Origin: Clostridia bacterium
GTDB lineage: Bacteria > Bacillota > Clostridia > UBA1212 > UBA1255
Reading direction: 5' to 3'
NCBI GenBank assembly: GCA_016287565.1
Contig: JAEFAM010000001.1
Span: 73,344 to 137,343 of the forward strand
Length of the DNA: 64,000 nucleotides
The notes under the pieces are model-generated. The model was not told where the DNA came from. It worked only from the letters and a program-made list of their open reading frames with translations, and did no database searches. The position numbers were made by a program, and so were the translations under genes. Shown in pieces: positions 5,957-59,320 of the stretch (its first letter is position 1; each line of letters opens with the position of its first letter).

Positions 5957-8900
5957 ATGGTAGATTTTAACAATTTTGAATCAATTCAGATCGGACTTGC
6001 TTCTCCGGAAACGATATTGAAATGGTCTCACGGCGAGGTCAAAAAAGCCGAGACCATCAACTATAGAACTCTGAAGCCCGAGAAAGACGGCCTTTACTGC
6101 GAACGCATCTTTGGCCCAACGAAGGACGGAGAGTGCCATTGCGGAAAGTACAAGAAAAACCGCTACCGCGGCATCGTCTGCGACAAGTGCGGCGTTGAAG
6201 TCACCAGCTCCAAGGTCCGCCGTACCCGCATGGGCCACATCCAGCTGGCGGCGCCCGTATCCCACATCTGGTTCTTCAAGGGCACGCCCTGCCGCATCGG
6301 ACTGCTGCTCGACATGAAGCCGAAGGACCTTGAAAGAGTGCTCTACTTCGCCGCCTACGTCGTGCTCGATCCCGGCCAGACCGCGCTGGAATACAAGCAG
6401 ATCCTCAACGAACACGACTACCAGGCCGCCGTCAAATCCTACGGCCAGTACGGGTTCAACGCCCAGATGGGCGCCGAGGCCATCCGCAAACTTCTGGAAG
6501 ACGTTAAGCTGGAGCCCCTGCGCAAAGAGCTGAAAGACGAGATCGAGGCGCTCGAAGGCCAGGACAAGGAAAAACTTAGCCAGACCGTGCTTCAGAAGAA
6601 AGCCGCTCTCCTTAAGAGACTCGAAGTCGTTCAGGCGTTTATCGACTCCCACAACCGCCCCGAGTGGATGATCCTTACGGTCATCCCGGTCATTCCTCCG
6701 GATCTGCGTCCTCTCGTTCAGCTGGACGGCGGCAGGTTCGCCACCTCCGACCTCAACGACCTTTACAGGCGCGTTATCAACAGGAACAACCGTCTGGCCA
6801 GATTGCTGGAGCTCAGAGCGCCCAGCGTCATCGTCAGGAACGAGAAGAGGATGCTGCAGGAAGCCGTTGACGCGCTGCTGGACAACGGCCGCAGAGGCAG
6901 AGCCATCACCGGCGCCTCCAACAGACCGCTGAAATCGTTGTCCGACATGCTTCGCGGCAAGCAGGGCCGCTTCCGTCAGAACCTTCTCGGAAAGCGCGTC
7001 GACTACTCCGGCCGAAGCGTTATCGTTGTCGGTCCCGAACTGAAGATCTATCAGTGCGGCGTGCCGAAGGAAATGGCCATCGAGCTGTTCAAGCCCTTCG
7101 TGATCTACAAGCTGGTCAGTATGGGCAAGGCAGTGAACATCAAGAGCGCCCGCAAGATGGTGGAGCGCGTGTCTCCCGAGGTCTGGGACATTCTGGAAGA
7201 CATCATCAAAGAGCACCCCGTGCTGCTGAACCGCGCTCCCACGCTGCACCGCCTCGGTATCCAGGCGTTCGAGCCGATCCTCGTAGAAGGCCACGCTCTG
7301 AAGCTCCATCCGCTGGTATGTACGGCGTACAACGCGGACTTCGACGGCGACCAGATGGCTATCCACGTGCCCCTTTCCGCGGAAGCCCAGGCAGAGGCCA
7401 GGATCCTTATGCTCTCGGCCAACAACCTTCTGGCTCCCAAGGACGGCAAACCCATCACCGTTCCCACGCAGGATATGGTCCTGGGCAGCTACTATCTGAC
7501 TCTCGTCAAGAATAAGGATTACAGCAACGCTCCCGTGTTCTCAGGATACGACGAAGCGAAACTGGCATACGACCTGGGAGAGATCAATCTCCACACCGCC
7601 ATCAAGGTGCGCAGGGAAGGCGAGTTCCAGGGCGAGCACATCACCCAGATCATCGAGACCACCATGGGCAAGCTGATCTTCAACGAAGCCATTCCTCAGG
7701 ACCTGGGATTCGTTGACCGCACCAAACGTGAGAACGCGCTGGTGCTGGAGATGAACAAGTTGGTCAAAAAAGGCACGCTGGGAGATATACTTGACCGCTG
7801 CATCAAGGCGCACGGCCTTACCGTTACCGCCGAGGTGCTGGACAAGATCAAGGCGCTGGGCTACAAGTTCTCTACGAAGGGCGCCATCACGGTAGGCGTC
7901 GAAGACATCATAGTTCCTAAAGAGAAGCAGAAACTGATCGAAGACACCGACAAAGTCGTCGACCGCATCAGCCGTGAGTTCCGCCGCGGTATGATCACCG
8001 AGGAGGAGCGCCACGAAAGCGTTATCCGCGCCTGGAGCGAAGCCATCGACAAACTGACGGACATCCTTAAAGCGAACATGGGCGAGTTCAACCCCATCAA
8101 CATGATGTCCGATTCCGGCGCCCGTGGTAACATCAACCAGATCAAGCAGCTGGCAGGTATGCGCGGACTGATGTCTGCTACCGCCGGCCGTACGATCGAG
8201 ATACCGATCAAGGCAAACTTCCGCGAAGGCCTGGACGTTCTGGAATTCTTCATCTCCAGCCACGGTACCAGAAAGACGCTGTCCGATACGGCGCTTCGTA
8301 CGGCAGACTCCGGATACCTGACCAGACGTCTCGTTGACGTCAGCCAGGAGGTCATCATCAGAGAAGACGACTGCGGCACCAAGGGATTCTTCGAGGTACA
8401 CGCCATTGCCAACTCCGAAGCCAAGGACCAGCCTCCGCTTGTCCCGCTGGCCGCCAGGATCTCCGGCAGATATCCCGCCGAGCCCGTGATCCATCCTGTT
8501 ACCGGCGAAGTCATGGCCGATACCGAGACGCTGATCGACGACGATCTGGCCGAGGCCATCGAGAAGGCCGGCATCCAGTCCGTTAAAGTCCGTTCCGTTA
8601 TGGCCTGCGAGAGCAGGCTGGGCGTCTGCAGCAAGTGCTACGGCGCAAACCTGGCTTCTCACACCAGGGCAAACATCGGTGACTCCGTAGGCGTTATCGC
8701 CGCCCAGTCCATCGGCGAGCCCGGTACGCAGCTGACCATGAGAACGTTCCACACCGGCGGCGTTGCTTCCGCAGACGATATCACCCAGGGTCTTCCCCGT
8801 GTCGAAGAGCTGTTCGAAGCCAGGAAGCCCAAGGGCGCCGCGACGATCTCCGAGATCGACGGCGTGGTCTCCGTCACCGAGAGCGGAAAGAAGAAAGAAG

Positions 8901-12230: not shown

Positions 12231-12259
12231 ATTATATCCTCCGGGGCCGGCGAACGCAA
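12231..12259 (-). promoter_or_regulatory. Putative promoter of the kinase–peptide–PqqD–peptidase operon (TTGCGT – 17 nt – TATAAT). The -35 hexamer lies inside a REP copy.
   Basis: On the minus strand a TATAAT -10 lies about 37 nt upstream of the kinase ATG, and the -35-like hexamer is supplied by the REP core. Confidence 0.3.
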
Positions 12260-12348
12260 GTCTGTCCCCCGTTCGCGCGTTCGGCGCCGGACGCTTGAAA
12301 CGCGAACCTGTCCCCCGTTCGGCGTGTCCCCCGTTCGGCGTGGGGGGA
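12251..12348. repeat. REP-like repeats (inverse orientation, AACGCAAGTCTGTCCCCCGTTCG, 3 copies). Positions 12251-12324 form the first copy of a roughly 72-bp direct repeat.
   Basis: The sequence was read directly. The block is near-identical to 12861-12932. Confidence 0.8.
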
Positions 12349-21233: not shown

Positions 21234-22457
21234 ATGAGTGATATTAAGAAAATTTCCAAAATAGCCATGAAAACTCCTCTGGTGGAGATGGACGGAGACG
21301 AAATGACCCGGGTGATTTGGGCGAAGATAAAGGATATCGTGATCAGGCCATTCGTTGACCTGAAGACGGAATATTACGACCTTTCGATCATGAACCGGGA
21401 CGCTACAGACGACAAGGTGACAGTGGAGAGCGCGGAGGCCACTAAGAAGTACGGTGTGGCGGTCAAGTGCGCTACCATCACGGCCAACGACGCCAGGCAG
21501 CAGGAGTTCGGCCTCAAAAAGCTCTGGAAGAGCCCCAACGCTACCATCAGGGCAATACTTGACGGCACGGTCTTCCGGGCGCCTATACTGGTGGATGGGA
21601 TCACGCCTCTGGTCCCCGGCTGGAAGAAGCCCATCGTCATTGCCAGGCACGCCTACGGAGACATTTATTCCGCAGTTGACGCAGTGGTGCCGAAGGGGTC
21701 GAAGGCCGAGTTGGTCATCACCGACGCCACGGGCAACGAAAAGCGGCTGACGGTGAAGGAATTCAGCGCTTCCGACGGTGTCGTTATGGGAATGCACAAT
21801 ACGAACGCGTCCATCGCCAATTTCGCCAGGGCCTGCTTCCAGTACGCGCTTGACCTGGGCGTGGATCTGTGGTTCTCCGCGAAAGACACGATCTCGAAGG
21901 TGTACGACGGCAATTTCCGCAGCGTTTTTGCGCAGATCTATGAAAATGAATATAAAACCCGGTTCGAGGACGCGGGCATCAGTTACTTCTACACGCTGGT
22001 GGACGACGCCATCGCCAGAGTTATGAAGTCCGAAGGCGGCTTCCTGTGGGCCTGCAAGAATTACGACGGAGACGTGTTCTCGGATATGCTGGCAACGGCT
22101 TTCGGCAGCCTTGCCATGATGACGTCGGTGCTGGTGTCTCCGGAGGGTTATTACGAATACGAGGCCGCCCACGGCACGATCCCCAGGCATTATCACAAAT
22201 ATCTGCGGGGAGAGGCCACTTCCACCAATCCCGTGGCAACGCTTTTCGCCTGGACCGGGGCGCTGGCCAAGCGCGGCGAACTGGACGATATCCCGGATCT
22301 GGTGGAGTTCGCCAAAAAGACGGAAAAGGTCACGCTGGAAGCCATCGCCGAGGGCAATATGACCGGCGACCTGGCGCTGATCTCTACCCTTCCCGAAAAG
22401 CGGGTAATGAACCTCGACGAATTCCTGGGCGAAGTTGCCAGGAGACTGGCCGAGTGA
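21234..22457 (+). CDS. icd: NADP-dependent isocitrate dehydrogenase (dimeric eukaryotic-like subfamily)
   Basis: It aligns end to end with IDH1/IDH2 (MSDIKKISK...VEMDGDEMTRVIW...KCATITANDARQQEFGLKKLWKSPNATIR...). It has its own AAAGG ribosome-binding site and ATG. Confidence 0.85.
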   Translation: MSDIKKISKIAMKTPLVEMDGDEMTRVIWAKIKDIVIRPFVDLKTEYYDLSIMNRDATDDKVTVESAEATKKYGVAVKCATITANDARQQEFGLKKLWKSPNATIRAILDGTVFRAPILVDGITPLVPGWKKPIVIARHAYGDIYSAVDAVVPKGSKAELVITDATGNEKRLTVKEFSASDGVVMGMHNTNASIANFARACFQYALDLGVDLWFSAKDTISKVYDGNFRSVFAQIYENEYKTRFEDAGISYFYTLVDDAIARVMKSEGGFLWACKNYDGDVFSDMLATAFGSLAMMTSVLVSPEGYYEYEAAHGTIPRHYHKYLRGEATSTNPVATLFAWTGALAKRGELDDIPDLVEFAKKTEKVTLEAIAEGNMTGDLALISTLPEKRVMNLDEFLGEVARRLAE

Positions 22458-22460
22458 TAT

Positions 22461-22581
22461 TCCGAAAATACCGGTAAATTCTTGTAATTTCCGGGAAATA
22501 TCCGGAAATGCCGGTAAATTTCCGAAAACTCCGGGAAAAGTCGGGAAATATTACGGTATTTCCCGGGAAATGCGGGAAAAT
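22461..22581. promoter_or_regulatory. Tandem 10-bp-periodic repeat tract (nCCGGnAAAT, about 12 units, including the palindrome ATTTCCCGGGAAAT), upstream of 22639
   Basis: The sequence was read directly. Confidence 0.5.
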
Positions 22582-23372: not shown

Positions 23373-23402
23373 GGCGAACGGGGGACAGACTTGCGTTCGC
23401 TT
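23373..23402. repeat. REP-like repeat (GCGAACGGGGGACAGACTTGCGTTCGC; the flanks form a 7-bp inverted repeat)
   Basis: The sequence was read directly. Confidence 0.8.
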
Positions 23403-24939: not shown

Positions 24940-25032
24940 TGTAATAACCTCTGTTTCGGTTGGTTTTTGAATGTTGAGATTATAGCGCAAAAATGCGAAA
25001 GTGTCAATCGAAGTGCCGTCAAACGGTTCGCC

Positions 25033-25075
25033 GAACGGGTGACAGACTTGGGGTTCGCACAGACTTGGGTTTCGC
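25033..25075. repeat. REP-like repeats (2 copies, the GTGACAGACTTGG variant)
   Basis: The sequence was read directly. Confidence 0.7.
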
Positions 25076-25271
25076 AGCTAAATTCACCCTTCGGGCGAGC
25101 TAAATTGGATCCTGCGGATCCAGCTAAATTCCGCTGCGCGGAGCTAAATTCGTCCTGACGGACGAGCGATGTGGAAAGGGGACAGACTTGAGTTTCACAG
25201 CTAAATTCACCCTTCGGGTGAGCTAAATTGGATCCTGCGGAGCCGGCTGAATTCGTTCTAAAGAACGAGCG
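25076..25271. repeat. Composite hairpin array. The punctuation AGCTAAATT separates four short GC hairpins (cacccttcgggtg, ggatcctgcggatcc, ccgctgcgcgg, cgtcctgacggacg). There are two tandem units, each primed by a REP copy.
   Basis: The sequence was read directly. The same array, inverted, lies at 30573-30665. Confidence 0.7.
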
Positions 25272-25362
25272 ATATTCAAGCTTTCATACAATTAAATAAT
25301 ATGATAAAATACACCAGAGGCGGCGAAAGCGATTGCCCCGTCGCGAAAAGAAAAGGCGTTTT

Positions 25363-30476: not shown

Positions 30477-30572
30477 ACAGTTTCACCCGTGCGCGTCAAT
30501 TTTCGATCGTAGTTCGCCGGCGTTATTGTACCACATCTCCGCTCTGCAGACAACTTCCGGCGTCGGCAATCT

Positions 30573-30665
30573 GGCTCGTCCGTGAGGACGAATTTAGCTC
30601 CGCGCAGCGGAATTTAGCTGGATCCGCAGGATCCAATTTAGCTCACCCGAAGAGTGAATTTAGCT
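30573..30665. repeat. Composite hairpin array, the inverted copy of 25076-25168
   Basis: The sequence was read directly. The same four hairpins are separated by AATTTAGCT, and the array is followed by two REP copies. Confidence 0.7.
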
Positions 30666-30725
30666 GCGAACGCAAGTCTGTCCCCCGTTCGGCGAGTTGC
30701 GAACGCAAGTCTGTCCCCCGTTCGC
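30666..30725. repeat. REP-like repeats (2 copies, GCGAACGCAAGTCTGTCCCCCGTTCG)
   Basis: The sequence was read directly. Confidence 0.8.
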
Positions 30726-30758: not shown

Positions 30759-30787
30759 TTGACAACCGCGGCGGGAAATGTTATGAT
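30759..30787 (+). promoter_or_regulatory. Sigma-A promoter of the hrcA operon (TTGACA – 17 nt – TATGAT)
   Basis: A consensus -35 hexamer and a good -10 hexamer lie directly upstream of CIRCE. Confidence 0.55.
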
Positions 30788-30798
30788 ACGCACAGTTG

Positions 30799-30825
30799 TT
30801 AGCACTCAACCGCGAAGAGTGCTAA
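30799..30825 (+). promoter_or_regulatory. CIRCE operator (TTAGCACTC-N9-GAGTGCTAA), the HrcA binding site
   Basis: A perfect 9-bp inverted repeat with a 9-nt spacer, immediately upstream of hrcA. Confidence 0.9.
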
Positions 30826-30859: not shown

Positions 30860-32116
30860 ATGGAACAGGATGAGCTTGACCTGAGAAAAATGCTGATACT
30901 GAAAGCGGTCATTGACGACTATATCGAGACTCGAGAGCCCGTCGGTTCCAGAACCATCGCGAAGAAGTACGACATGGGCCTCAGCTCGGCCACCATCAGA
31001 AACGAGATGGCGGACCTGGAAGAGCTGGGGTATTTGTCCCAGCCCCACACTTCCGCAGGCAGAGTGCCTTCAGACAAAGGATACAGGCTTTACGTCGACA
31101 AGCTCATGAACCTCGAGGAAAAGCTGGGCTTCGAACCCACGCCCGAGGAGCTGGAGGACGTAAAATCGAGGATGCAACACGAGATCGGAGAGATGAGCGA
31201 CCAGATCAGAGTTGCCTCGGAGCTCGTGTCCCGGCTCACCGAATACACGTCCATAGCGGTCACGGGAGCGGCGGACGGCACCAGGCGCATAAAGGCGCTG
31301 CAGGTGGTCCCGGTGGAACCCGGCAAGGCGCTGGCGGTCATCGTACTTGACGACGACACGGTGCGGAACGCGGTTATACAGCACGATCCGGCCATCGTTC
31401 CTGAGGTCCTTATGAAGGTCTCCACCCAGTGCAACCTGCTTTTCGCGGGACACAGAGTCGAAGAGATCAACCTTAATATGATAGATGCGGTATCGGAGGC
31501 AACGGGCGTGTCGAGGGCCGCGCTGATGCCGGTGATCGACGGACTGTTCGAGTGCATTAAAAAGGCGGAAAGCACGGAAGTCTACACCGAAGGCGCCGCG
31601 AAATTCCTGTCGCACCCCGAATTCTCCGACGTGGGCAAGGCCAGAGGCATCCTCGAACTGCTGAACCGCGACGATCTCATGATCGACCTTATTAAGGAAT
31701 GCTCCACCGCAGACGGACTGGTGATCAGGATAGGCTCGGAAAATAAAATAGAAGGACTCAACGAATGTTCCGTTGTCACGGCTTCGTACAGCGTCAACGG
31801 CGTGAAGCTGGGCACCATCGGCGTCCTGGGACCCACCAGGATGGACTATCCGAGAGTCGTTGCCGCGCTGGAATACGTGCGCAGGCGGTTGACGGGCGGC
31901 CGGGAGCTTCCGGCGGGAACGGTGAGCATCCAGAAAGGCATGCTGAACCTCGAAGGAGAGGCCGGGACCGAGCCGGGAATTGACGGAGCGAAGGCGGACA
32001 ACGTCACCGGAGGCGCAAAAGACAACGCAGGCGTTGACGCGGACAACCTCGCCCGGACCGATAAAGTTCGGAACGAAGGATTGCTGAGATCCCGGAAACA
32101 GGAGGAAGGACAATGA
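30860..32116 (+). CDS. hrcA: Heat-inducible transcription repressor HrcA
   Basis: The N-terminal winged HTH (LKAVIDDYIETREPVGSRTIAKKY) is present, and the gene sits in the operon position upstream of grpE–dnaK–dnaJ. It has a C-terminal low-complexity extension. Confidence 0.9.
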   Translation: MEQDELDLRKMLILKAVIDDYIETREPVGSRTIAKKYDMGLSSATIRNEMADLEELGYLSQPHTSAGRVPSDKGYRLYVDKLMNLEEKLGFEPTPEELEDVKSRMQHEIGEMSDQIRVASELVSRLTEYTSIAVTGAADGTRRIKALQVVPVEPGKALAVIVLDDDTVRNAVIQHDPAIVPEVLMKVSTQCNLLFAGHRVEEINLNMIDAVSEATGVSRAALMPVIDGLFECIKKAESTEVYTEGAAKFLSHPEFSDVGKARGILELLNRDDLMIDLIKECSTADGLVIRIGSENKIEGLNECSVVTASYSVNGVKLGTIGVLGPTRMDYPRVVAALEYVRRRLTGGRELPAGTVSIQKGMLNLEGEAGTEPGIDGAKADNVTGGAKDNAGVDADNLARTDKVRNEGLLRSRKQEEGQ

Positions 32117-46357: not shown

Positions 46358-46510
46358 GTGCGAACGGGGGACAGACTTGGGTTTCGGGCGGTCGAATGGT
46401 CCGTCGAACGGGGGACAGACTTGGGTTTCGGGCGGTCGAATGGTCCGTCGAACGGGGGACAGACTTTCGTTCGCCCCCCGGTGGAAAGGGGACAGACTTG
46501 CGATCACCGT
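46358..46510. repeat. REP-like repeat cluster (4 copies, GAACGGGGGACAGACTTGGGTTTCG and variants)
   Basis: The sequence was read directly. Confidence 0.8.
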
Positions 46511-46844: not shown

Positions 46845-46966
46845 CGACGGACAATTATTGCCCGGAATTGTTCCCGGGCAACGCACGATTTTTCAAACAC
46901 GAGGCTGCTTTCCTTTATAGGAACGACAAGCGGCCTCTTGTTTTTTTTGTCTGCCTGGGCTGGAAA

Positions 46967-47065
46967 ACCCAAGTCTGTCACCTTTCCACCGGCAGGTGAA
47001 CGCAAGTCTGTCACCTTTCCACCGGCTGGAAAACGCAAGTCTGTCACTCGTTCGCGGCTGGGTTG
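46967..47065. repeat. REP-like repeat cluster (3 copies, inverse orientation, the GTCACC variant)
   Basis: The sequence was read directly. Confidence 0.75.
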
Positions 47066-48084: not shown

Positions 48085-48180
48085 TAACGGAGACACCTCT
48101 TCTCGTTTTGATGTACGAATTGTAACATATTTGTGAAGCTGTTGGCAAGAGGCCGGCGGACAGGCGGTGGAGGGGCGCGA

Positions 48181-48292
48181 ACAGGGGACAGACTTGGGTT
48201 TCGACCGATTCGCGCGGCGGTGGAAAGGGGACAGACTTCCGTTTCGAACGATTCGACCGATGGTGAACAGGGGACAGACTTCCGTTTCGCCT
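48181..48292. repeat. REP-like repeat cluster (3 copies)
   Basis: The sequence was read directly. Confidence 0.8.
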
Positions 48293-48497: not shown

Positions 48498-48594
48498 ATA
48501 CATATTTTCCGGAATAACGCGGGTTTTTGCTTTGCTTAACGTCGAGGATTTCGGCAAAACGGGGGAGCTGAGAGATACCCGGGCGTACCCGGTA

Positions 48595-48665
48595 AAACGC
48601 AAGTCTGTCACCCGTTCGCCCCCTTGGCAAAGCCTCCGAAACGCAAGTCTGTCACTTTTCCACCG
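48595..48665. repeat. REP-like repeats (2 copies, inverse orientation)
   Basis: The sequence was read directly. Confidence 0.75.
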
Positions 48666-59248: not shown

Positions 59249-59320
59249 GGGCCTGAAAAACGCAAGTCTGTCACCTGTTCACCCGAGAGCCGCCTGACGG
59301 CGAACGCAAGTCTGTCACCT
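59249..59320. repeat. REP-like repeats (2 copies, inverse orientation, the GTCACC variant)
   Basis: The sequence was read directly. Confidence 0.75.

Follow-up and report, generated by a model that had tools for sequence, protein, structure and literature searches.

Mini-hairpin arrays near uvrC and hrcA of a Clostridia bacterium: a probable linker variant of the Gut-1 repeat family

In a stretch of 64,000 nucleotides (nt) from a Clostridia bacterium (GenBank assembly GCA_016287565.1, contig JAEFAM010000001.1, positions 73,344 to 137,343), hereafter the window, three short intergenic arrays alternate a constant 9-nt linker, AGCTAAATT, with GC-rich mini-hairpins. Sequence comparison indicates that this element is in all probability a AGCUAAAUU-linker variant of the Gut-1 family (RF01706) that scores below Rfam's own cut-off. 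The finding is non-random yet does not define a new class: the copies in the window are decaying, and they belong to a motif family that is already known, though uncharacterised, and here takes a new linker form. As a whole the element is a non-coding repeat, unstable and widely distributed among Clostridia of the gut and rumen; it is neither an array like the clustered regularly interspaced short palindromic repeats (CRISPR) nor a regulator of neighbouring genes. As to what the arrays do, we favour, with a probability of about one half, the reading that they are a modular extragenic repeat similar to repetitive extragenic palindromes (REPs) and bacterial interspersed mosaic elements (BIMEs), attached to longer hairpins, folding on one strand, and with no locus-specific role here.

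Three arrays at two intergenic loci

The exact linker occurs 10 times in the 64-kb window, against 0.20 expected, and a count of at least 10 was reached in 0 of 100 shuffles. All ten copies are confined to two intergenic loci: four at 25076-25150, two at 25199-25229, and four, on the minus strand, at 30591-30665. They separate GC-rich mini-hairpins in three near-identical arrays, named A, B and C, and the spacers between them read cacccttcgggYg, ggatcctgcggatcc, ccgctgcgcgg and cgtcctSacggacg. The original prediction, made from the letters of the window alone, had described this 9-nt punctuation and its spacers correctly. The arrays and their parts are as follows.

25076-25173, plus strand: array A, four units of AGCTAAATT and a mini-hairpin, then a degenerate fifth linker, AGCGATGTG (25165-25173)
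25085-25097, 25107-25121, 25131-25141 and 25151-25164, plus strand: hairpins hp1, hp2, hp3 and hp4 of array A
25199-25276, plus strand: array B, a truncated, decaying tandem copy one REP after array A, in the order linker, hp1, linker, hp2 (broken), GGCTGAATT, hp4 cgttctaaagaacg, and a terminal degenerate fifth linker AGCGATATT (25268-25276)
30568-30665, minus strand: array C, a full four-unit inverted copy with linkers at 30591, 30611, 30635 and 30657, hp4 at 30577-30590 and a degenerate fifth linker AGCCAGATT (30568-30576)

Arrays A and C align with 3 mismatches in ~89 nt, which bears out the predicted near-identical inverted copy ahead of hrcA; its start lies at 30568 and not, as had been proposed, at 30573, because AGCCAGATT occupies 30568-30576. 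Array B, predicted as a second, truncated unit in tandem, is indeed 92% identical to A over 73 nt and is without the third (hp3) unit, the third linker there reading GGCTGAATT. The claim that each spacer is a perfect palindrome holds generally, with two exceptions: hp1 of array A, cacccttcgggCg, contains a single A.C mismatch (the hp1 of array B and that of a same-strain contig, L119, pair perfectly), and hp2 of array B is broken (ggatcc/ggaGcc). The hp4 of array B carries a compensated C:G to T:A change. A de novo scan of the window for spaced 8-mers returned no further array of this type and one REP cluster only. Folding of the window arrays was only moderately better than that of shuffles (z -1.9 to -3.3, for both strands and for DNA and RNA alike); the strong support for hairpins is the family-wide evidence presented below and not that of the window copies.

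Relation to Gut-1

At Rfam gathering thresholds the window yielded three transfer RNAs (tRNAs) only, and 18 composite loci, in which a forward array is followed by an inverted one, yielded nothing over the arrays. A permissive Rfam scan matched Gut-1 at 25075-25154 (29.7 bits, E 4e-4) and at 25198-25280 (23.1 bits), and the orthologous array of a syntenic relative (L132) scored 37.2 bits; the gathering score of 50 bits is not reached by the window arrays. The Gut-1 consensus, ..UGAAAU-hp-GUGAAAU-hp-GUGAAAU-hp-GUGAAAUU, has the same hairpin-linker architecture as the window. Its linker, AGUGAAAUU (AGUGA(A/U)AUU), agrees with AGCUAAAUU in length, in position and in 7 of 9 bases, the window linker departing at the other two; the latter is a linker type of its own, though single arrays mix it with linkers of the AGTGATATT type. 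Gut-1 is characterised by at least three consecutive covarying short hairpins, and each full window array has four, with covariation evident across the family.

Gut-1 was defined from 43 human-gut metagenome examples and was rated as certainly RNA ('RNA? Y', on the basis of covariation) and as not cis-regulatory, with nothing said on function (Weinberg et al. 2010, Genome Biol 11:R31; PMC2864571). The published alignment runs from a tRNA 3' end through a terminator and four forward linkers, AGUGAUAUU, with hairpins to a short centre and then to reverse-complement linkers, AAUAUCAC, with hairpins (PMC2864571).

The connection between the window arrays and Gut-1 was found in metagenomes. A scan for the window's hp2 between two linkers returned six contigs, on which units of AGCTAAATT run directly into units of AGTGATATT, AGTGATGTT and AGTGATTTT. 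The modules ggatcctgcggatcc, cgtcctgcggacg and ccgctgcgcgg are common to AGCTAAATT units and to above-threshold Gut-1, and are found behind either linker type. On these contigs the Gut-1 model scores 54-81 bits over AGTGATATT stretches and 35-37 bits over AGCTAAATT stretches; in two of them, L123 and L125, the 54-81-bit matches flank and run into AGCTAAATT units that carry the window's hp2. A single intergenic region of L123 (780-2330) holds ~19 forward units, four ~95-nt tandem repeats and ~16 reverse units (~35 units). Interleaved units and the composite layout of the published alignment thus provide evolutionary continuity with accepted Gut-1 members, and from the interleaving, the common hairpin modules and the like layout we infer that the window element is a Gut-1 linker variant. 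The original prediction had offered a match to a known repeat family as grounds for its own refutation, and such a match is what was found: a sub-threshold relative of Gut-1, interleaved with above-threshold Gut-1.

The likeness extends to the short GC hairpins with a conserved 9-nt A-rich linker, the long hairpin or terminator before the first linker (often after a tRNA), the second arm with reverse-complement linkers, and the occurrence in gut Clostridia. Since 2010 Gut-1 has stood in Rfam, modelled on three hairpins of one arm only, as a human-gut-only small RNA (sRNA) candidate without a function; the window suggests a much larger family, with Gut-1 as one of its linker types. New here are its modularity, its abundance in rumen and gut Clostridia, the 4+4 composite, the attachment of arrays to the feet of longer hairpins, fast gain and loss, a loop signature on one strand, and recurrence upstream of genes for PF05635 proteins. 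Composite, leading palindrome, copy-number variation and PF05635 link are all absent from the published Gut-1 description, which gives human-gut occurrence only.

Pairing is constrained across the family

One genome of each bacterial species was searched for three AGCTAAATT linkers at spacings of 10-16 nt; because the linker was searched for exactly, its constancy is partly a matter of ascertainment. At least 118 loci in other genomes have three or more linkers, almost all in rumen or gut Clostridia, and the arrays are therefore not unique to the two window loci. Among the matches listed, to which the array counts in this and the next section refer, carriers are metagenome-assembled genomes of Oscillospiraceae, Acutalibacteraceae and Ruminococcus and one complete genome, Ruminococcus sp. 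JL13D9 (NZ_CP162392, array at L042). Exactly 4 linkers are present in 152 of the 203 arrays; size ranges from 3 to at least 16 units, with tandem triplication of three-unit blocks. One of ~140 arrays lies inside a long open reading frame and the remainder are intergenic. The orientation of solo arrays is unbiased with respect to the genes on either side (7 and 8 in co-directional spacers, 9 in convergent and 5 in divergent ones). Matches of the linker scan in Methanosarcina and Pyrinomonadaceae were set aside as non-hairpin repeats, and a literature search for the 9-mer in both orientations gave primer and small interfering RNA coincidences only.

A perfect end-anchored stem of at least 3 bp was found in 73% of 358 distinct spacers, against 1.7% of shuffled ones. 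In a gap-free alignment of 61 distinct 11-nt units, the window's hp3 included, 95.5% of cells are paired (49.6% when shuffled; slid controls at most 38.5%), and covariation scores 1.08 (0.20 when shuffled), a value that none of 500 shuffles attained. Each of the four stem positions shows every one of the four Watson-Crick pair types. These spacer-stem and covariation statistics indicate that the linker is constant and that the hairpin sequence is free while its pairing is constrained. The same holds for copies within one genome, whose hairpin sequences have diverged with pairing kept. The prediction of a structured non-coding element is thus supported, hairpin potential with heavy covariation being a rule of the whole family.

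Alternation of a constant word with variable segments is also the superficial appearance of a CRISPR. CRISPRs have repeats of 23-55 nt and unique, non-palindromic spacers, whereas here the repeats are 9 nt and the segments are 11-15-nt palindromes identical between copies, with no cas context seen; the original prediction had rejected a CRISPR because the segments are palindromic and identical between copies. The broader proposal, that the arrays are mini-CRISPR-like or guide-RNA arrays (for example of the tandem interspaced guide RNA (TIGR) type) whose variable segments serve as targeting spacers, can point to this alternation and to sub-threshold matches of CRISPR repeat models at 14-18 bits. 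The variable segments are, however, self-complementary, identical among the three window copies and built of modules common to several loci, and a scan of viral contigs for the pattern gave six matches, all unrelated coding-type tandem repeats of 21 or 24 nt. We regard this proposal as almost certainly wrong.

Composite layout and a one-sided loop signature

The commonest layout is four forward units followed by four reverse units (++++----, 28 of 141 elements among the matches listed), followed by ++++ alone (24), the form seen in the window; the opposite arrangement is virtually absent. The second arm carries the reverse complement of its own lineage's linker. A perfect palindrome of 6-18 bp, here called hp0, abuts the first linker in 65 of 195 arms, compared to 1 of 195 random positions. 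Frequently this palindrome is a GAAAAAA-stem-TTTTTTC terminator, symmetric in sequence, that follows immediately on the CCA end of a gene for a tRNA or for transfer-messenger RNA (tmRNA). In the at least 118 loci of other genomes the hp0 position is held by tRNA/tmRNA terminators or other long palindromes, not by the REP of the window.

Of 826 stem positions, 804 are Watson-Crick pairs, 4 are G.T, 11 are A.C and 7 are other mismatches, so that wobble pairs are no commoner than true mismatches on either strand. A wobble test for the transcribed strand (0 G.T versus 8 A.C) was discarded as an artefact of trimming loop-adjacent pairs, the full recount being not significant. The loops do distinguish the strands. 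On the linker strand they have T..C ends in 129 of 237 hairpins and the mirror, G..A, in 0, and the closing pair is 5'C-3'G in 186 of 237. Read on the other strand, AATTTAGCT, the hairpins are C-(GNA or GNNA)-G, the type of the exceptionally stable d(GCGAAGC) mini-hairpins. The one-sided loops point to function or formation on the single AATTTAGCT strand, and since the asymmetry is present in both arms, the composite is two-fold symmetric.

The whole composite also folds its forward linkers onto its reverse linkers (z -9.2 and -10.6). Degenerate linkers of the second arm (AATTTCGCT, TATTTAGCT) are without compensation in the first, so that pairing between the arms is possible and selection for that pairing is unsupported.

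A conserved 9-bp word repeated four times, inverted in the second arm as the lineage's own reverse complement, might instead be read by a protein on duplex DNA, as in an iteron, a centromere or the arm-type sites of an integrase, with the linkers bound in direct orientation in one arm and inverted in the other. The position of arrays near tRNA and tmRNA 3' ends, which are classical integration sites, would suit such a role, as would the location of the window arrays in spacers that promoter scans predict to be untranscribed. Linkers are spaced anywhere between 16 and 26 bp apart and are not phased to the helix, however, palindromic spacers with strand-asymmetric loops would go unexplained, and no integrase or partition gene was seen beside the arrays. 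We consider a duplex-binding array very improbable.

Larger arrangements were seen in addition. On L120, L121, L123 and L124 (for example L123 1340-1800), ~95-nt tandem repeats with a AAAACGCCC..GGGCGTTTT stem lie between convergent arrays and form with them non-coding regions of 1.5 kb. Whole composites are duplicated in tandem at L105 600-2300, L018 5800-6500 and L101 1500-2300; each 1057-nt unit of L105 carries a tRNA 3' fragment, a composite and a small acetyltransferase-like gene, resembling tandem attachment (att) site structures.

Gain and loss among close relatives

The same-strain metagenome contig, L119, has identical arrays and begins inside array A, which shows that the arrays break short-read assemblies. 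The relative L132 is fully syntenic, with a 94% identical HrcA; it keeps array A, with a different hp2 loop, and is without arrays B and C. Its array B slot, between the REP and the uvrC promoter, is occupied by a different ~105-nt palindromic element, and its REPs upstream of hrcA are present without array C. In relatives whose HrcA is 78% and 60% identical, the region upstream of hrcA has no arrays and no REPs, with promoter and CIRCE operator (controlling inverted repeat of chaperone expression) conserved. From this variation at the hrcA and uvrC loci, the arrays are seen to be separable from the REP, subject to rapid turnover, and dispensable for uvrC and hrcA. Most likely the window arrays have no locus-specific role for either gene, and in annotation they should be masked as repeats and not treated as regulators of uvrC or hrcA.

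These comparisons also bear on the predicted association with the REP, a hairpin whose core, GGGGACAGACTTG, stands between short variable stems (e.g. GCGAACG..CGTTCGC) and which matches 33 times in the window against 0.9 expected. All three window arrays adjoin the 3' side of a REP hairpin, as had been stated; yet there are 33 REPs to 3 arrays, L132 has REPs without an array, and arrays of other genomes adjoin other palindromes, so that the association is valid for this lineage only. A candidate arrangement in which arrays A/B and C form the arms of a 5.3-kb element around uvrC was ruled out, L132 having array A only.

The ~105-nt palindromic repeat of L132, gccgtttgaacggg..taagaattttg..cccgtcaaacggttc, is present at L132 ~1330-1440 and again at ~6720-6830, the latter among the REPs upstream of hrcA, and fragments of it lie in the window at ~25008-25040. 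Because it fills the slot that array B holds in the window, several different small repeats evidently collect in the same spacers.

A modular extragenic repeat, or a small RNA

In the reading that we favour, the unit is a 9-nt A/T-rich linker plus a GC-rich, nearly pure Watson-Crick mini-palindrome of 7-17 nt, usually in fours, and an array starts at the foot of a longer palindrome, a REP here and a tRNA or tmRNA terminator in other genomes. Arrays would arise and grow beside such pre-existing strong hairpins. When the duplex opens, or in a read-through transcript, the AATTTAGCT strand would fold into a series of C-(GNA/GNNA)-G mini-hairpins of great stability, the linkers between them staying unpaired; the series might form a structural obstacle or be a site of processing, and the linkers might be the recognition sequence for the agent that propagates the element. 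The observed behaviour is that of a repeat: there are many diverged copies per genome in all intergenic types, tandem duplication alters the number of units, linkers of different types stand together in one array, and whole arrays are gained or lost between close relatives.

Several observations weigh against this reading. No transposase, target-site duplication or defined ends were found, the Pfam scan having taken in seven proteins. The target-site result comes from one filled/empty comparison, window versus L132, in which array C has no flanking direct repeat and the array B slot is taken by another element. Miniature inverted-repeat transposable elements would have terminal inverted repeats and a target-site duplication; the composites here have the form ++++----. 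Divergence of copies with pairing kept is more in keeping with selection acting on each locus over a long time than with a recent, selfish spread. The strong asymmetry of the loops, like the conservation of the linker, indicates a specific partner, for which a purely structural account has no candidate. Some arms, moreover, are very likely transcribed, because 15 of 16 PF05635 genes carry a composite in their leader (see below). Finally, Rfam lists RF01706 as 'Gene; sRNA'.

That classification, and the 'RNA? Y' rating from covariation, belong to the alternative of a stand-alone sRNA, a 'Gut-1 RNA' in which the array is transcribed and its hairpins keep the 9-nt linkers single-stranded for the binding of several copies of one protein or RNA, as in a sponge or scaffold like CsrB or RsmZ. 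Heavy stem covariation around a conserved unpaired linker would be expected of such a molecule, as would the loop asymmetry of one strand. In other genomes, arrays end on the AATTTAGCT strand in the symmetric GAAAAAA-stem-TTTTTTC palindrome, which would terminate transcription coming from the array side, and the lack of orientation bias relative to neighbours is what independent genes should show. On the other hand, a consensus-promoter scan of the window array loci found none directed into any array, and all three arrays lie upstream of both flanking promoters. Two of the three are absent from the 94% relative, the number of units runs from 3 to more than 16 with mixed linker types, and G.U pairs as rare as true mismatches are unusual for a structurally selected RNA. 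The loops also favour the strand opposite to the one that Rfam models. We therefore hold an sRNA to be possible, though rather unlikely.

Composites upstream of PF05635 genes

A gene of ~120 amino acids (aa) lies 13-43 nt after 13 of the 79 oriented composites among the matches listed. Its product belongs to Pfam PF05635, the 23S ribosomal RNA (rRNA) intervening-sequence (IVS) protein, a four-helix bundle. In the array loci examined, a 4+4 composite stands directly upstream of 15 of 16 PF05635 genes, and the gene is always on the strand on which the adjacent arm reads AATTTAGCT; such a gene was adjacent to inverted arrays in 14 loci of other genomes. The possibility that arms bracket the gene in Clostridia was rejected, no linkers being found downstream of 12 of 14 genes; both arms lie upstream.

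Ralph and McClelland reportedly described, in 1993, intervening sequences of 23S rRNA with a PF05635 reading frame, of the Leptospira/Coxiella type. The likeness to these is that an inverted-repeat structure goes with a gene for a four-helix bundle of ~120 aa, both being inserted in or next to stable-RNA genes. The Clostridia composites differ in that both arms are upstream of the gene and in that most arrays, including those of the window, have no such gene nearby: tblastn and profile searches of the 64-kb window found no PF05635 gene, and the related contigs L120-L125 have none either.

An IVS-like module nevertheless deserves consideration, in which the arrays are the nucleic-acid partner of PF05635 (Avd-like) proteins, with linkers bound by the protein or arms paired into a processing stem, and in which the window arrays are orphan arms or trans sites. 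Besides the 15 of 16 genes with their fixed strand relation, two gut 'phage' contigs, L127 and L128, have PF05635 genes preceded by above-threshold Gut-1 (59 and 65 bits). On the minus strand of L069, ~330 nt upstream of a second PF05635 gene, whose divergent product is 49% identical to the usual protein, a separate 4+4 composite has the linkers TGCGATATA (forward) and TATATCGCA (reverse), and from this sequence comparison linker and protein may go together. PF05635 homologues on Nostoc, Bernardetia, Treponema and Monoglobus replicons (L126-L131; four phyla) lie between inverted short-repeat arms, with, in that order, 33 nt at 94%, 46 nt at 80%, 72 nt at 71% and 24 nt at 92% complementarity; the arm repeats are (GTCGCAA)n/(TTGCGAC)n, (TTAGTGA)n/TCACTAA and (GAAAGNG)n/(CTCTCCG)n. 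The folding of first-arm onto second-arm linkers (z -9 to -11) would fit a processing stem.

Other findings speak against a partnership of this kind. The gene accompanies only ~15% of composites, and the window and its related contigs have none. Protein and linker do not co-vary cleanly, since 60% identical proteins have the same linker and one 65% identical protein has another, and the degenerate second-arm linkers are uncompensated in the first. The association is also one-sided because the loci were chosen for their arrays. On balance the arrays are quite unlikely to be partners of PF05635 proteins.

A more general version, speculative and somewhat less doubtful, is that Gut-1-type arrays are the cis part of a widespread two-part module of which the PF05635 protein is the other, orphan arrays being footprints or trans sites. 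Such a module would settle beside strong hairpins (tRNA/tmRNA terminators, REPs, rRNA helices), and its protein would recognise the lineage-specific linker. If true, this would be a first handle on the function of the very common PF05635 family, for which a literature search gave no function outside diversity-generating retroelements, and it would explain an orphan Rfam motif. The arrays are also a tractable system for the origin and upkeep of mini-hairpin repeats in Firmicutes, and may reveal the role of the four-helix-bundle 'IVS proteins'.

Two further observations concern these genes. At L018, the 5' end of a PF05635 gene copy is interrupted by a second composite. Several composites without the gene (L088, L035, L099, L032, L036, L024 and L030) are followed by a ..GCATCTAAA(c/t).. 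word, which at L030 also occurs ~230 nt downstream of a PF05635 gene stop; the word suggests gene-containing and gene-less versions of one longer element.

Comparison with REP, BIME and BOX repeats

The favoured reading, a modular extragenic repeat, takes its model from the REPs and BIMEs of enterobacteria and pseudomonads, which are short GC-rich intergenic palindromes, multi-copy and strain-variable, in arrays of variable unit number and with a GTAG word beside the hairpin. The arrays resemble them as multi-copy intergenic palindromes in variable arrays, with a short conserved single-stranded word and with gain and loss. They differ in their much smaller units (stems of 4-6 bp), in conserving the linker only and not the hairpin, and in the direct orientation of units within an arm; no REP-associated tyrosine transposase (RAYT) type gene is linked to them, the search having been limited to array neighbours. 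BOX modules of Streptococcus pneumoniae, of 45-59 nt and conserved in sequence, are likewise modular intergenic repeats with variable numbers of internal modules and predicted stable folding, but the arrays have no sequence similarity to BOX.

Promoters, REPs and other repeats in the window

Each array, together with its REPs, fills the gap between two promoters. Arrays A and B (25026-25276 with REPs) lie between the divergent promoters of a leftward gene (minus strand, 25007-24979) and of uvrC; array C (30568-30725 with REPs) lies between a minus-strand promoter (30553-30525) and the promoter and CIRCE of hrcA. UvrC and HrcA were identified by their Pfam domains. The features around the arrays are listed here.

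24979-25007, minus strand: consensus sigma-70 promoter TTGACA-17-TATAAT (12/12) of the leftward gene, array A being upstream of it
25026-25075, plus strand: two overlapping REP-like units (..GACAGACTTGGGGTTCGCA / CAGACTTGGGTTTCGC), the leading long hairpin (hp0) directly before the first linker of array A, with pattern matches at 25041-25057 and 25058-25074 (a 17-nt tandem)
25174-25198, plus strand: REP unit GAAAGGGGACAGACTTGAGTTTCAC between arrays A and B, hp0 of B (pattern match 25181-25197)
25283-25310, plus strand: promoter-like site of uvrC, immediately right of array B
30525-30553, minus strand: promoter-like site of a leftward 637-aa gene, just left of array C
30666-30725, minus strand: two REP hairpins, GCGAACG-GGGGACAGACTTG-CGTTCGC, abutting the first linker of array C as its hp0 (matches 30666-30682 and 30699-30715)
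30759-30825, plus strand: hrcA promoter TTGACA-17-TATGAT and CIRCE operator, downstream of array C and its REPs
30799-30825, plus strand: CIRCE, TTAGCACTC-N9-GAGTGCTAA

Further REP units occur at, for example, 12250-12266, 23384-23400, 46361-46507, 46958-47047, 48179-48289, 48593-48653 and 59256-59316, often in tandem clusters with a period of 33-44 nt, just upstream of promoters or beside tRNA genes.

The window's HrcA (30860-32116) has 418 aa and that of the 94% relative 403 aa, whereas homologues of less than 90% identity have 344-378 aa and cover 82-84%; these lengths and coverages indicate a lineage extension of HrcA outside its Pfam domains. Another repeat lies at 22453-22580, directly after a gene end, where a AGTGATATT word is followed by ~120 nt of CCGG(G)AAAT-type repeats with periods of 10, 20 and 40 nt and with TAAATT words between CCGG..CCGG mini-stems. 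This repeat may be a distant cousin of the linker-hairpin arrays.

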